Part shown: one piece after another, positions 28,958-37,746 of the stretch
How the letters are laid out: each line of letters opens with the position of its first letter
How positions within the stretch are numbered: position 1 is the first letter of the stretch
Assembly (NCBI GenBank): GCA_050008715.1
Contig: JBEKMC010000004.1
Location: 3,011 to 67,010, forward strand
Direction of reading: 5' to 3'
Length of the DNA stretch: 64,000 bases
Source of the DNA: Acidimicrobiales bacterium
GTDB lineage: Bacteria > Actinomycetota > Acidimicrobiia > Acidimicrobiales > Bog-793
Notes under the pieces: model-generated
What the model was told of the DNA's origin: nothing
What the model saw: the letters and a program-made list of their open reading frames with translations, nothing else
Database searches by the model: none
Made by a program: the position numbers and the translations under genes

Positions 28958-29779
28958 TCAGCGAGCCGTCATGCCCGCGTCGACCGGGAGCACGGCCCCG
29001 GTCACGCCGCTCGATCCTGCCCCACACAGCCACACGATGGCCGCGGCCACTTCGGCCGGCTCGAGCAATCTCGGCTCGAGGTGATGGACGCGGAATTCCT
29101 CGGGGCTCTCGAGCCCGTACACGGCGGCGCTGGCAACGAGCCCGGCCGTGCGGGTCGACCCCGGAGCCACCACGTTGGCGGTGATGCCCTCGGTGGCGAG
29201 CTCGGCCGCGAGGCTGCGCGTAAAGCCGATCACGCCGTGCTTTGCCGCCACGTACGCGCTGAGCCGCGGGAATCCCACGACTCCGCCGGCTGAAGCGACC
29301 GCGACGAACCGGCCCTGTCGCGGCATCGGCATCGCCAGCATCGCCGGGATGGCCGCCCGGGCGAGCCGCCAGACGCCCGCCAGGTTGACGTCGATCATCG
29401 CCTCCCAGAGCTCGTCGCCGGTCTCCCACCCCGCCGGGCCTCCGCCGATCATGCCGGCGACAGCGACAGCGGCGTGCAGCCCACCAAAACGCGACACGGC
29501 GAGATCCACGGCGACGTCCAGCCCCTCCTGGTCCCGAACGTCAGCGACGTGGCCGGCTGCGTCCGGACCACACTCACGGACGACCGCCTCGAATTCGCCC
29601 AGCGTCGCGAGGCTGTAGTCGACGACGGGGTCGTCGCTGCACGAGTCGACGAGGACGAGCTTCCAACCCGCTGCCGAGAGCGCCCGAGAGACGGCGGCGC
29701 CGATGCCGCGGGCCGCGCCGGTCACGACGGCGACCCGGCCGGCGCCCGACGCGCCGGGGGCGATGTGCTCGGTCGTCAT
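28958..29779 (-). CDS. SDR-family oxidoreductase (mycofactocin-coupled type by context)
   Basis: 273 aa. GRVAVVTGAARGIGAAV...SAYVAAKHGVIGFTRSLA gives the TGxxxGxG and YxxxK motifs. ATG overlaps the etfB stop as ATGA. Confidence 0.85.
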   Translation of the reverse strand: MTTEHIAPGASGAGRVAVVTGAARGIGAAVSRALSAAGWKLVLVDSCSDDPVVDYSLATLGEFEAVVRECGPDAAGHVADVRDQEGLDVAVDLAVSRFGGLHAAVAVAGMIGGGPAGWETGDELWEAMIDVNLAGVWRLARAAIPAMLAMPMPRQGRFVAVASAGGVVGFPRLSAYVAAKHGVIGFTRSLAAELATEGITANVVAPGSTRTAGLVASAAVYGLESPEEFRVHHLEPRLLEPAEVAAAIVWLCGAGSSGVTGAVLPVDAGMTAR

Positions 29780-30957
29780 GAGATCTCCGTTTCTTCGTCG
29801 TGATCCTCGACGAGGGGTGGGGGCGTCCGTGCAGTCTCCCCTGGATCGGCCGTCTCCCCAGGGCTGGCCGGTTCGGACGTATCCGCCAGCTCACCCCACT
29901 GGGGCAGCTCACCCGACTGCGCCAGCTCACCCCACTGGGGCAGCTCACCCCACTCGGCCAGCACCGTTAGGAGCGCGTCGGCGGCTTGCTCAGGCCCGAG
30001 CGTGAGGGTACGCGCCGTCGGGCGCTCGTGCAGTGCGCCCGTGAGCGTGAGGATGCGCTCGCGCGCAGTCCGGCCGCGAGGCGGCGGCACGACTCGCGTG
30101 CGAGGCCGGAACGGCTCGACACCCACGAGCTCCACCGTCGTCTCTGCATGCCCGCTGGCGCCGTGGGCATCGGGAGCCGGGTGGGCCGCCAGCACGGCGC
30201 CGAGGACTTCGATCTCGGCGTGCGTCGCCGACAGTGCCCGCCCGAGTGTCGCACGGCGCAGGCGAGCGGTCACGGCCTCCACCGAGATCACGCACGGTGG
30301 ACGGAGCGCCAGGCGTTCGCGGCGCCCGCCGTCGAGGCGTCGCTCGACCTCGAGCACCACGGTCGGCGCCCCTGATACCGCAGACGCTCTCGGAGCCGAA
30401 CCGGCCCCGCCCGAGCCGTCCGCGCCCGAACCGTCCCCGCCAGAACCACCCCTCGGCTCCGTCGCCTCCGTCGACCGCCCGATGGCTACGGCGACGAGCC
30501 CAAGCGCTTGGACGGCCCCCAGCCTGGCGGCGAGGAAGGCGGGAACCGAGCCACTTCCGTGGTCGACGCTCGCATCGCCGCAGCACACGACGAAACCGGT
30601 CGATCCGCGAACCTCGACCAGTCGCTGCACGCCGGCCGACAGCGCGTCGGCGGCGGCGGCGCTCGGGGCCGAGGCGGCGAGAGGGACTCGGACCGCTCGC
30701 TCAGCCCCGGCGGCGATCGCACCACGCAGCACGTCCTCCGCGTCCGCGTCGCCGGCGGTGAGCGCCACGGCCTCGCCGCCGGTGCGCTCGGCGATCCGCA
30801 GCGCCCACTCGAGGGCGGCCTCGTCGGAACGTGACGGACCTGCTGAGGCACGGTCGGCGATCACGGTTCCCGTGAGCGGGTCGACCCCGGCACGGAGCTC
30901 CACTCGTTTCATGCAGGCGACGACGAGGAGCCGGCCGGCCGCGTCGGGAGGGCTCAT
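29776..30957 (-). CDS. Electron transfer flavoprotein beta subunit-like (FixA-like), extended
   Basis: The N-terminal LLVVACMKRVELRAGVDPLTG...PSRSDEAALEWALRIAERTGGEAVALTAGDADAEDVLRGAIAAGAERAVRV is typical ETF-beta. At 393 aa it is much longer than the usual ~260 aa because of a Gly/Ser/Asp-rich insert and a repeat-rich acidic tail. ATG overlaps the fixX stop as ATGA. Confidence 0.75.
   Translation of the reverse strand: MSPPDAAGRLLVVACMKRVELRAGVDPLTGTVIADRASAGPSRSDEAALEWALRIAERTGGEAVALTAGDADAEDVLRGAIAAGAERAVRVPLAASAPSAAAADALSAGVQRLVEVRGSTGFVVCCGDASVDHGSGSVPAFLAARLGAVQALGLVAVAIGRSTEATEPRGGSGGDGSGADGSGGAGSAPRASAVSGAPTVVLEVERRLDGGRRERLALRPPCVISVEAVTARLRRATLGRALSATHAEIEVLGAVLAAHPAPDAHGASGHAETTVELVGVEPFRPRTRVVPPPRGRTARERILTLTGALHERPTARTLTLGPEQAADALLTVLAEWGELPQWGELAQSGELPQWGELADTSEPASPGETADPGETARTPPPLVEDHDEETEIS
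29887..29958. repeat. 18-nt tandem repeat x4 in the etfB 3' region
   Basis: cagctcaccccactgggg and variants, encoding WGELPQ / WGELAQ / SGELPQ / WGELAD. A second 18-nt x2 repeat at 29834-29869 encodes PGETAD/PGETAR. Confidence 0.9.
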
Positions 30958-35701: not shown

Positions 35702-37746
35702 GGTCGGCTCGCAGCGCCGGCGAACGCTCCGAAGCCCACCGAGCAGAGGGCCATCGCCGTCCTGCGACCTTCGAGAACGGCTTCGAGCACGGTCCGCGGC
35801 GCGACGGCGTCACCGGCCACGAACACGCCGCTGCGAGCGGCCGACACGGCGCGGTACAACGTGTCCTCCGGCAGCCGATGGCCGGCGTCGACGAAGACGG
35901 CGGCCGGCACAGTCGAAACGACGCCAGAGTCGCGATGCTCGATGACAACGCTCTCGGTGTCCACCGAACGTATGACGCACCGCTTGGCGAGCACGACACC
36001 GGCTTGCTGCAGCCGCACGCTGGCGGGCGCCAGATCCCCGGTGCGGGCGAGCTGCTCGCCGACGACGAAGTCGGGAGTCACGAACGTGACTGCAGCGCCG
36101 AGCGAGGCCAGCAGCTCGGCTACACCCACACCGATCGGGCCGCCGATGGGGTCGTAGACGACGGCAGGCGACAGCGGCGCTTCGCCGACGAGGCGCTCGG
36201 CTGACAACATATCGGCCGCCGCCACCACCGGAGCGAACGGCGCCACATGGAAGCCCCACCGGCCGGGACGTGAGCCCGTGCAGCACACGACGGGACCTTC
36301 ATGGGCGTCGAGCTCCTCCAACGCCACCTCGTAGCCGGTGACGAGCTCGACGCCGGCGATGCGGCACTCCGCCTCCTGCCATGCGACGAAGTCCGCCAGG
36401 CGTGCGCGGCCCGGGGCCTTGCTCGCCGTCACGACCATGCCTCCGAGATGATCCGCCCGTTCGAACAAGGCGACCGGCGTGCCCGTGAGCGCTGCCACGC
36501 GAGCGCATTCGAGCCCGGCGGGACCACCACCCACCACGAGCAGCTGGCCTCGGCGGTCGTCCACCCGCTTGCCCGCAGGCCGGCGACGGCCGTCTGAGGC
36601 GCCCACGACCTCCGACTCGTCGACCCAGGCGGGCTCGGGAACGGCGGCTTCGACGGACTCGTAGCCCGTGTGGGGATCGGTGATGCAGGAGACGAGGGGG
36701 TTTCGCGAGTCGCGGACCTGGCACGCCTGATTGCACAGCGTGCACGGGCGGACGCGACCGGGCCGGCCGCTCAACACTTTGCGGACGAGCGCGGCGTCGG
36801 CGATAAACGCCCGTGTCATCTCGACGAAGTCGGCTTCTCCGCTCTCGACGATGTCGGCCGCCATCGCCATCTCGACGATGGAGCCCTGCGCGACGACGGC
36901 GATCTCCGGTGCGAGGGCGGAGCGCACGAGTGCGGTGGCGTGGCGGTTCATGCCCGGGGCGACGTGGCCGTCCGGCTGGGTCGCACCCGTCCCGTAGGCG
37001 GAGCCGCGAACGACGGTCACGTAGTCGAAGCGCCGGTTCGAGGCGAGTCCTGCGAGCAACGTCGCGGCCGCCTCGGGGACGATGCCCGCCCACGGGGCGA
37101 GCTCGTCACAGCTGAAGCGGAGCCCGACGATGGCGGATGTGGCAGCCCGGATGGCGTCGAGCACGGCCCGCAGGAAGGCCGGACGGTCGGCGCCGAGCTC
37201 GTCGTCTCGCAGGTTCGTGAGCCCCGAGCAGAACTGGCGCAGCAGGCTCCACTGCCCGGCGTTCACTTCCACGCCGTCGCAACCTGCCTCCACCGCCAGG
37301 GCGGCAGCGGAGGCGAAGCCGTCGATGACGGCGGCGACGTCCTCGTCCTCCATGATCTTCGGGACTTCCCGGGTCACGACGTCCGGCACGCTCGAGGGGG
37401 CGAGGAGCGCTTGTTGGTGGTAGGCGCTCGAGCCCTGCCCGCCGGAATGCCCGATGGCGGCGAGCACGAGCGAGCCCTCGGAGCGGCATGCCGTGGCAAC
37501 CTCGGACCAGCCTTCGGCGCACTCCGACGCGAGCGGGGAACGTTCGTACGGCCAATCGGAGGGGTGGACTGCAGCCTCCTCGACCACGATGACGCCGGCC
37601 CCGCCGGCGGCCCTCGCCCGGTAGTAGGCCACGTGTCGCTCGGAGACGGAGCGCTTCCGCCCGAGGTTCGTCACGTGCGGCCCGAAGACGAAACGATTGC
37701 GGGCCGTGCTGCTCCCGAGCCGTACCGGGTCGCCGAGCGTGCTCAC
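35698..37746 (-). CDS. FadH/OYE-family flavoenzyme, copy 1
   Basis: 682 aa from the GTG at 37746, which overlaps the mftC stop as GTGA. VSTLGDPVRLGSSTARNRFVFGPHVTNL...VVEEAAVHPSDWPYE, a Cys cluster (CTLCNQACQVRDSRNPLVSC), then LLVVGGGPAGLECA. The 80-codon upstream extension in the track ORF overlaps mftC and was rejected. Confidence 0.85.
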   Translation of the reverse strand: MSTLGDPVRLGSSTARNRFVFGPHVTNLGRKRSVSERHVAYYRARAAGGAGVIVVEEAAVHPSDWPYERSPLASECAEGWSEVATACRSEGSLVLAAIGHSGGQGSSAYHQQALLAPSSVPDVVTREVPKIMEDEDVAAVIDGFASAAALAVEAGCDGVEVNAGQWSLLRQFCSGLTNLRDDELGADRPAFLRAVLDAIRAATSAIVGLRFSCDELAPWAGIVPEAAATLLAGLASNRRFDYVTVVRGSAYGTGATQPDGHVAPGMNRHATALVRSALAPEIAVVAQGSIVEMAMAADIVESGEADFVEMTRAFIADAALVRKVLSGRPGRVRPCTLCNQACQVRDSRNPLVSCITDPHTGYESVEAAVPEPAWVDESEVVGASDGRRRPAGKRVDDRRGQLLVVGGGPAGLECARVAALTGTPVALFERADHLGGMVVTASKAPGRARLADFVAWQEAECRIAGVELVTGYEVALEELDAHEGPVVCCTGSRPGRWGFHVAPFAPVVAAADMLSAERLVGEAPLSPAVVYDPIGGPIGVGVAELLASLGAAVTFVTPDFVVGEQLARTGDLAPASVRLQQAGVVLAKRCVIRSVDTESVVIEHRDSGVVSTVPAAVFVDAGHRLPEDTLYRAVSAARSGVFVAGDAVAPRTVLEAVLEGRRTAMALCSVGFGAFAGAASRP

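Follow-up and report, generated by a model that had tools for sequence, protein, structure and literature searches.

A mycofactocin cluster with an OYE1-OYE2-ETF-FixCX module in the place of mftD: a candidate dehydrogenase-to-quinone chain in Acidimicrobiia and other actinobacteria

We analysed a stretch of 64,000 nucleotides (the window) from an Acidimicrobiales bacterium (assembly GCA_050008715.1, contig JBEKMC010000004.1, positions 3,011 to 67,010), which carries a mycofactocin (mft) gene cluster with a module for two old yellow enzyme (OYE) family oxidoreductases, an electron-transfer flavoprotein (ETF) and FixC- and FixX-type subunits. The window has ~70% G+C and is most closely related to metagenome-assembled genomes of Acidimicrobiales. 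Mycofactocin is a redox cofactor that was solved only recently; its biosynthesis (MftA-F) and recycling (MftG) have been elucidated in mycobacteria. The cluster forms a co-directional run on the minus strand in the order mftA-mftB-mftC-OYE1-OYE2-etfA-fixC-fixX-etfB-SDR-ADH-mftF, where SDR is a short-chain dehydrogenase/reductase and ADH an alcohol dehydrogenase. The features, in the direction of transcription, are the following.

39477..40241, minus strand: SDR of the ordinary type, PRK07231-like, 76 nt upstream of mftA
39227..39400, minus strand: mftA, 57-aa mycofactocin precursor with the C-terminus ...EISIDGMCGVY (open reading frame, ORF, and motif)
38890..39249, minus strand: mftB, chaperone, PqqD-like (ORF; tblastn homologues adjoin mftC in related loci)
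37743..38900, minus strand: mftC, radical S-adenosylmethionine (SAM)/SPASM maturase (TIGR03962, 565.7 bits, cutoff 265; ATG 38900 fits the model start)
35698..37746, minus strand: OYE1, flavin mononucleotide (FMN) TIM barrel with a 4Fe-4S Cys motif and two Rossmann-type domains (TIGR03996, Pfam Oxidored_FMN)
33632..35701, minus strand: OYE2, the better conserved of the two OYE paralogues (TIGR03997)
32562..33635, minus strand: etfA, mycofactocin-associated ETF alpha (NF038209, 343.9 bits, cutoff 240; Pfam ETF_alpha)
31258..32565, minus strand: fixC, FixC/EtfC-type FAD-dependent ETF:quinone oxidoreductase (PDB 7koe_C, 8.8e-72, full length)
30954..31253, minus strand: fixX, 2x[4Fe-4S] ferredoxin-like subunit (PDB 7koe_D, 6.9e-14; Fer4 family matches)
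29776..30957, minus strand: etfB, mycofactocin-associated ETF beta with a Gly/Ser/Asp insert (TIGR04503, 246.2 bits, cutoff 200)
28958..29779, minus strand: SDR, mycofactocin-coupled, nicotinoprotein type (TIGR04504, 327.8 bits, cutoff 250)
27712..28824, minus strand: N,N-dimethyl-4-nitrosoaniline (NDMA)-dependent, mycofactocin-linked Zn ADH (TIGR03989, 553.1 bits, cutoff 440; ATG 28824 with a ribosome-binding site)
26001..27668, minus strand: mftF, glycosyltransferase (TIGR03965, 335.5 bits, cutoff 280; start taken from the model alignment)

The NCBIfam and Pfam profile scores bear out the gene identities given in a preliminary description of this DNA, and the chosen starts agree with the family models, positions 1-5 of the NCBIfam models aligning to residues 1-12 of each ORF. 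OYE1 scored 666.7 bits against a cutoff of 627.9 with TIGR03996 (mycofactocin system FadH/OYE family oxidoreductase 1), and OYE2 916.9 bits against 793.15 with TIGR03997 (mycofactocin system FadH/OYE family oxidoreductase 2). The products of etfA and etfB, above their cutoffs and flanked by mftC and mftF, belong to the mycofactocin-associated ETF.

From the canonical mftABCDEF(G) set the cluster holds mftA, mftB, mftC and mftF. Hidden Markov model (HMM) scans of all sizeable ORFs detected no mftD, mftE, mftR or glucose-methanol-choline (GMC) oxidoreductase/mftG gene in the 64-kb window, and tblastn with four MftD, three MftE and two MftG references gave no match anywhere in it. The preliminary description was right that a GMC gene is lacking and had overlooked the absence of mftD and mftE from the 64 kb. 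The mftE gene is also missing from the clusters of the closest relatives (L001-L003, L086), while in most other module loci it directly follows etfB. The core peptide of MftA, (I/V)SIDGMCGVY, does not differ between mftD-type and OYE-type clusters. The menaquinone genes menE, menA, menH and menD do adjoin mftF (20432-26091), as had been described, but this neighbourhood is kept only in the four nearest relatives (L001, L002, L003, L007), and we therefore rejected it as functional evidence.

The gene junctions were re-read on the minus strand and all were found as first described: GTGA at 37743-37746 (mftC/OYE1), 35698-35701 (OYE1/OYE2) and 33632-33635 (OYE2/etfA), ATGA at 32562-32565 (etfA/fixC), 30954-30957 (fixX/etfB) and 29776-29779 (etfB/SDR), and a 4-nt gap between fixC and fixX (fixC TGA at 31260-31258, then CGCC, then fixX GTG at 31253). 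They support the proposed single co-directional, translationally coupled unit joining the mft genes to the ETF/FixCX set. The chain of overlaps runs further upstream than was noted (23 nt for mftA/mftB, 11 nt for mftB/mftC) and is looser downstream, with a gap of 133 nt between SDR and ADH, a GGAAGGAG ribosome-binding site ahead of ATG 28824, and ~43 nt between ADH and mftF, provided that GTG 27668 is the mftF start. Six of the seven listed junctions are 4-nt overlaps; of the 19 remaining pairs of same-strand neighbours in the window, which give the local background, four can be read in this way (binomial ~4e-4, our own arithmetic). The overlap density is above the local background, yet it is the ordinary signature of a tight actinobacterial operon and not an anomaly.

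Similar junctions were found in homologous loci, where the start codon nearest to the upstream stop was chosen by script, so that the counts are upper bounds: etfA/fixC overlapped in 69 of 79 loci, and 4-nt overlaps were read for fixC/fixX in 54 of 75 and for OYE2/etfA in 28 of 57. A promoter and terminator scan detected no promoter-like site and one terminator-like match, below shuffle expectation, and is uninformative for an actinobacterium of 70% G+C. The transcript may begin with the ordinary SDR gene upstream of mftA, which is kept at this position only in the closest relatives (L001, L002, L085, L086).

The association of mycofactocin with ETF and OYE proteins is not new, and TIGR03996, TIGR03997, NF038209 and TIGR04503 are named as mycofactocin-associated in NCBIfam. 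All four window proteins are above the curated cutoffs of these families, which are defined by sequence and neighbourhood only, and the window locus is a member without any difference. RefSeq gives the same family names on Streptomyces plasmids, and our literature search found no paper pairing mycofactocin with ETF. The locus of the window is thus an ordinary member of a named family, and what gives the analysis its value is the comparison between loci.

With each GTDB species represented by one genome, a pattern scan detected the mycofactocin-type etfA in at least 590 genomes. The carriers are mostly Acidimicrobiia (Ilumatobacteraceae, Microthrixaceae, Iamiaceae), and others are Amycolatopsis, Tamaricihabitans, Labedaea, Kitasatospora and one Streptosporangiaceae genome. 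Synteny was analysed for 80 of these loci with 10-kb flanks (the ETF-centred sample), with counts taken where the flank allows. The etfA gene is followed by fixC in 65 of 65 loci, then by fixX (64/65) and etfB (63/65); beyond the ETF set, mftF is found downstream in 50 of 54 loci and mftE in 43 of 54. Upstream of etfA, OYE2 is directly adjacent in 47 of 61 loci, and OYE1 and mftC are each found in 26 of 51. The alpha-C-X-beta order, pointed out earlier as unusual, recurs wherever the flank allows in the 80 genomes and is therefore a signature of the family.

In 10 of 51 genome loci (L008, L010, L020 and others) the order is etfA-fixC-fixX-etfB-mftE-mftF with no OYE gene upstream, and DedA-like, purK and purE genes are located there instead. 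The recurrent unlabelled ORFs near the module were considered as additional partners and rejected, being antisense shadows or housekeeping neighbours (DedA-like, purK, purE, TetR). Two bins titled 'Bifidobacterium breve' (L026, L070) carry a high-G+C mft/ETF cluster of the Acidimicrobiia type and are almost certainly mislabelled or contaminated.

The comparative signal of this locus type is its strict exclusivity with mftD, which holds at the level of clusters and replicons. MftD, the premycofactocin synthase, oxidatively deaminates 3-amino-5-(4-hydroxybenzyl)-4,4-dimethylpyrrolidin-2-one (AHDP) to premycofactocin, giving the redox-active keto-amide, and its electron acceptor is oxygen. No MftD match was found in any of the 80 ETF-centred loci (tblastn, E < 1e-3). 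A second sample, independent of the first, consisted of 80 metagenome loci centred on mftC: mftD was found in 19, OYE genes after mftC in 14, and both in none (one-sided Fisher p = 0.003-0.005 for the loci with at least 3 kb downstream, sequences that are not phylogenetically independent). The 12 PLSDB plasmids with mftC gave the same picture, with mftD and no mycofactocin-type etfA in four, the reverse in six, both in none, and neither in two haloarchaeal plasmids. One Streptomyces plasmid carries mftD together with mftG, and six plasmids carry the module and neither of these genes.

OYE1 directly after mftC occupies the slot of mftD in canonical clusters. Within Streptomyces the exchange is one for one: the NBC_00080 cluster is mftR, mftG, mftA-B-C-D-E-F, and that of Streptomyces SAT1 is TetR, mftA-B-C, OYE1, OYE2, etfA, fixC, fixX, etfB, SDR, mftF, mftE. 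The metagenome locus L144 has mftR-mftB-mftC-OYE1-OYE2-mftE-SDR-mftF, with no ETF genes in the ~2.4 kb between mftF and the end of the fetched stretch. On the neighbour-joining tree of MftC the two cluster types are interleaved, with ~10 switches between the mftD type and the OYE type, which is the pattern expected of non-orthologous displacement, one cassette taking the place of the other. The OYE proteins and MftD are all FMN TIM-barrel flavoenzymes that share the position after mftC and a mutually exclusive distribution. They differ in that MftD is a member of the FMN-dependent alpha-hydroxy-acid oxidase family and not homologous to the OYE pair, whose electrons would go to ETF and quinone. 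According to the 2011 discovery paper MftD is not universal. The window encodes MftA, MftB, MftC, MftF and two mycofactocin-dependent nicotinoproteins and no MftD, so that something must do the MftD step.

A third mft layout was detected in six metagenome loci (L098, L101, L114, L142, L143, L159), where between one and three SDR genes in tandem come after mftR, mftB and mftC. These loci have no mftD, OYE genes, mftE or mftF within reach, and two of them (L098, L101) carry an additional fourth mycofactocin-type SDR further downstream.

OYE1 and OYE2 have the same architecture, an FMN TIM barrel, a 4Fe-4S motif CxxCxxxC(x11)C and two Rossmann-type domains, and the CxxCxxxC...C motif is kept in 20 homologues. 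Among solved structures, full-length OYE2 is closest to 2-naphthoyl-CoA reductase (NCR, the best match), 2,4-dienoyl-CoA reductase, histamine dehydrogenase (HADH) and trimethylamine dehydrogenase (TMADH). Its C-terminal half aligns throughout with NCR, HADH and TMADH, third domain included, whereas FadH matches only residues 5-102 of this half (the first Rossmann domain), which speaks against a FadH-like NADPH site. At the active site OYE2 has a His aligned with that of HADH and a Ser where FadH has a Tyr ('cshss' against 'gsegy' in FadH), which we take to be Tyr166, the proton donor of FadH. Thus neither the catalytic Tyr nor the NADPH-binding domain that mark FadH was found in OYE2. OYE1 differs from OYE2 at the active-site positions (AGQ.S, against CSHSS in OYE2) and has PHV/PHE at the PHC position of HADH, where the FMN-binding Cys is located in that enzyme.

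With TMADH and HADH the OYE2 protein shares the three-domain architecture, its third domain lacking the NADPH glycine motif. The redox partner would also be shared: ETF is the partner of TMADH by the co-crystal 1o94, which holds both TMADH and ETF chains, and it is the candidate partner here by gene adjacency. The histamine and trimethylamine dehydrogenases, which belong to the same enzyme family as the OYE pair, oxidise C-N bonds. Both partnership with an ETF and oxidation at C-N bonds are thus documented for the family.

The ETF and Fix subunits have the same four-subunit composition as the EtfABCX/FixABCX complex of T. maritima (7KOE), an electron-bifurcating NADH:ferredoxin oxidoreductase that depends on menaquinone. 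Among solved structures fixC and fixX match 7koe_C and 7koe_D best, each over its full length, and EtfA and EtfB are close to 7koe_B and 7koe_A. The fixC product also scored above the cutoff of the quinone-binding domain ETFQO_UQ-bd (PF21162, 29.0 vs 27.7), which together with the T. maritima match marks it, at the level of sequence, as an ETF:quinone oxidoreductase homologue. With the E. coli equivalog models the scores were below the cutoffs, 311.6 vs 610 for fixC (PRK10157) and 53.4 vs 166 for fixX (PRK15449); by these scores the two proteins are not E. coli equivalogs but FixC/EtfC-type and FixX/EtfX-type homologues.

The window set differs from 7KOE in gene order (A-C-X-B against B-A-C-X), in being joined to mft genes and a pair of Fe-S flavoenzymes, and in the nucleotide loop of EtfB, where GRQAIDGDTxQVGP of the solved ETFs is replaced by the family-specific V.CGD.SlDRGSGSVPAFLA, kept in 58 homologues. 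We also observed tandem repeats in the ETF genes: an in-frame 18-nt unit x5.8 (32587-32690) encodes SAQRLE repeats in the C-terminal tail of EtfA, another 18-nt unit x4.3 (29882-29962) encodes WGELPQ-like repeats in the C-terminal tail of EtfB, and an in-frame 15-nt repeat (30396-30473) forms the Gly/Ser/Asp insert of EtfB. All of these lie outside the NCBIfam model matches.

MftG is a GMC flavoenzyme, a mycofactocinol dehydrogenase that feeds the respiratory chain (PMC11778925), and ~25% of the mftC genomes do not encode it, the substitute being left as an open question (2025 MftG paper). No GMC/mftG match was detected in the 80 ETF-centred loci with either of the tblastn references used, the Tsukamurella MftG, which is insensitive and missed an annotated Streptomyces MftG at 1e-30, and a Streptomyces MftG; the conclusion was the same. 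The published co-occurrence table gives two module carriers, Streptomyces sp. SAT1 (whose listed MftC accession is the gene in L082) and S. yangpuensis, as lacking MftG genome-wide; Aquihabitans, Iamia, Ilumatobacter and most Amycolatopsis are MftG-negative there as well.

The preliminary description had proposed a check of the module against mftG for mutual exclusivity. The absence of GMC genes from the module loci and the two MftG-negative Streptomyces are in line with exclusivity, but the absence is not specific to the module and phylogeny confounds the comparison: mftG is mostly a trait of Mycobacteriales, it was found near only one of the 19 mftD-type loci of the mftC-centred sample, and Thermomicrobium is without both MftG and the module. 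For these reasons the module-mftG exclusivity is weak evidence. The proposed chain and MftG are likened by the same suggested outcome, mycofactocinol electrons entering the respiratory chain, and by the lack of mftG at the module loci examined; they differ in belonging to unrelated protein families and in that a multi-subunit chain would here do the work of a single enzyme.

We tentatively propose, with slightly less than even confidence, that OYE1-OYE2-etfA-fixC-fixX-etfB encodes a mycofactocin-dedicated dehydrogenase-to-quinone chain, which would replace MftD and probably MftG. The OYE pair would take two electrons from C3 of the mycofactocin pyrrolidinone and pass them via its 4Fe-4S cluster to ETF, which the FixC/FixX ETF:quinone oxidoreductase would then re-oxidise using menaquinone. 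The premycofactocin potential is -255 mV and that of menaquinone -74 mV (PMC11778925), so that electron flow from mycofactocin to menaquinone would be downhill. We infer the substrates, this direction of flow and the OYE-ETF pairing. The chain would stand in for MftD in the conversion of AHDP to premycofactocin, and the module very likely supplies this step. It may well re-oxidise mycofactocinol too, probably standing in for MftG; the Streptomyces comparison, in which mftD and mftG disappear together, the presence of two paralogues and the capacity of the ETF/FixCX set make this likely, and one OYE paralogue may serve each reaction. As a possible, rather tentative generalisation, mycofactocin systems would have two interchangeable architectures: the canonical one, with the oxidase-type flavoenzymes MftD for making the redox centre and MftG for recycling it, and OYE1/OYE2-ETF-FixCX, which would do both AHDP deamination and mycofactocinol re-oxidation and would be the architecture of at least ~590 species genomes.

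Several observations weigh against the proposed chain. Six genes are much for one biosynthetic step. The OYE and ETF sub-modules are sometimes apart, as in L144 and the 10 of 51 genome loci described above. Some mftC loci (L089, L154) have neither mftD nor OYE genes within reach, so that mftD can lie apart from the cluster or there may be a third solution, and the absence of mftD from module carriers covers 10-kb flanks and single replicons. Among solved structures etfA and etfB rank bifurcating ETFs first, and the EtfB nucleotide loop, as aligned, is unlike that of any solved ETF. The OYE2 barrel taken alone is closest to the FadH and NCR reductases, slightly closer than to TMADH/HADH, and in OYE2 a Leu stands in place of the Cys to which FMN is bound as 6-S-cysteinyl-FMN in the amine dehydrogenases (HADH 'phc' vs 'ahl'). 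To our knowledge, no OYE-family enzyme oxidises an alpha-hydroxy amide.

The preliminary description saw in the module a stand-in for MftG only, which would carry mycofactocinol electrons to menaquinone by way of ETF and FixCX and leave MftD to be encoded elsewhere. The FixC homology and the lack of a GMC gene in the window and the 80 module loci agree with such a route, as do the share of mftC genomes without MftG and the MftG-negative SAT1 and S. yangpuensis; a catabolic route of high flux would be well served by an ETF/FixCX chain, and the genes of the mycofactocin-reducing SDR and ADH lie in the same operon. As the whole function of the module this account, though plausible in its outline, is nevertheless unlikely, since it leaves the mftD exclusivity and the occupancy of the mftD slot by OYE genes unexplained: mftD never occurs in or near module clusters, yet 19 other loci of the mftC-centred sample have it less than 10 kb from mftC. 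The absence of MftG, on the other hand, is non-specific, as the single mftG near the 19 mftD-type loci and Thermomicrobium indicate. The converse, that the OYE pair is an oxygen-independent premycofactocin synthase (an AHDP dehydrogenase) with ETF/FixCX as a mere electron sink and recycling done by something else, would account for the exclusivity and the shared slot. It is in keeping with the amine-dehydrogenase relatives that use ETF and with the ETF set remaining joined to mftE-mftF even where OYE genes are not adjacent. We regard it as a rather poor prospect, because a four-subunit quinone-linked chain with two large enzymes is heavy for one turnover per cofactor molecule, because two conserved paralogues with different active-site residues suggest two reactions, and because mftD and mftG were lost together in the Streptomyces comparison.

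Neither of the other two explanations that we considered accounts for the mftD exclusivity, and both appear improbable. A bifurcating complex of the EtfABCX type would oxidise NADH (or mycofactocinol), reduce menaquinone and deliver a low-potential reductant to MftC, to NCR-like OYE reductases or to both. Among solved structures, 7koe is the best or second-best match for each of the four ETF/Fix subunits, bifurcating ETFs come first for EtfA and EtfB, and the best overall solved match of OYE2, 2-naphthoyl-CoA reductase, depends on a low-potential donor (PMC6502838). Against this, the EtfB loop that lines the second-nucleotide site in the aligned solved ETFs is replaced by the family-specific motif, the operon has no ferredoxin or flavodoxin gene, and the gene order is unlike fixABCX. 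Alternatively, the OYE enzymes would be mycofactocin-dependent and act on an unrelated substrate (an enoyl-CoA, a steroid or an amine), so that the module would be a substrate-utilisation cluster travelling with the cofactor genes. Their nearest named families (FadH, BaiCD, bilirubin reductase) and the co-operonic nicotinoprotein SDR and ADH suit a catabolic role, which is difficult to reconcile with the invariant synteny with biosynthetic genes across two actinobacterial classes and Streptomyces plasmids and with the lack of transporter or CoA-ligase partners.

If the proposed mycofactocin-to-quinone chain is real, it would answer what replaces MftG in at least some MftG-less genomes and how MftD-less organisms make the cofactor, and would give the ETF/FixCX complex a new physiological partner. 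The locus type, common in Acidimicrobiia, Pseudonocardiales and Streptomyces plasmids, is a concrete candidate for the MftD and MftG gaps.

Two other gene sets were detected in the window. At 6911-9687 an ATP-grasp gene overlaps by 1 nt with the radical SAM gene behind it, whose product matches NF040546, 'CUAEP/CCAEP-tail radical SAM (seleno)protein', with 466 bits, just below the cutoff of 500; the pair may be a second peptide-modification system. At 51533-64000 a type IV pilus set (pilT, pilB, pilT, pilM and neighbours) is located in this Acidimicrobiales-like genome.

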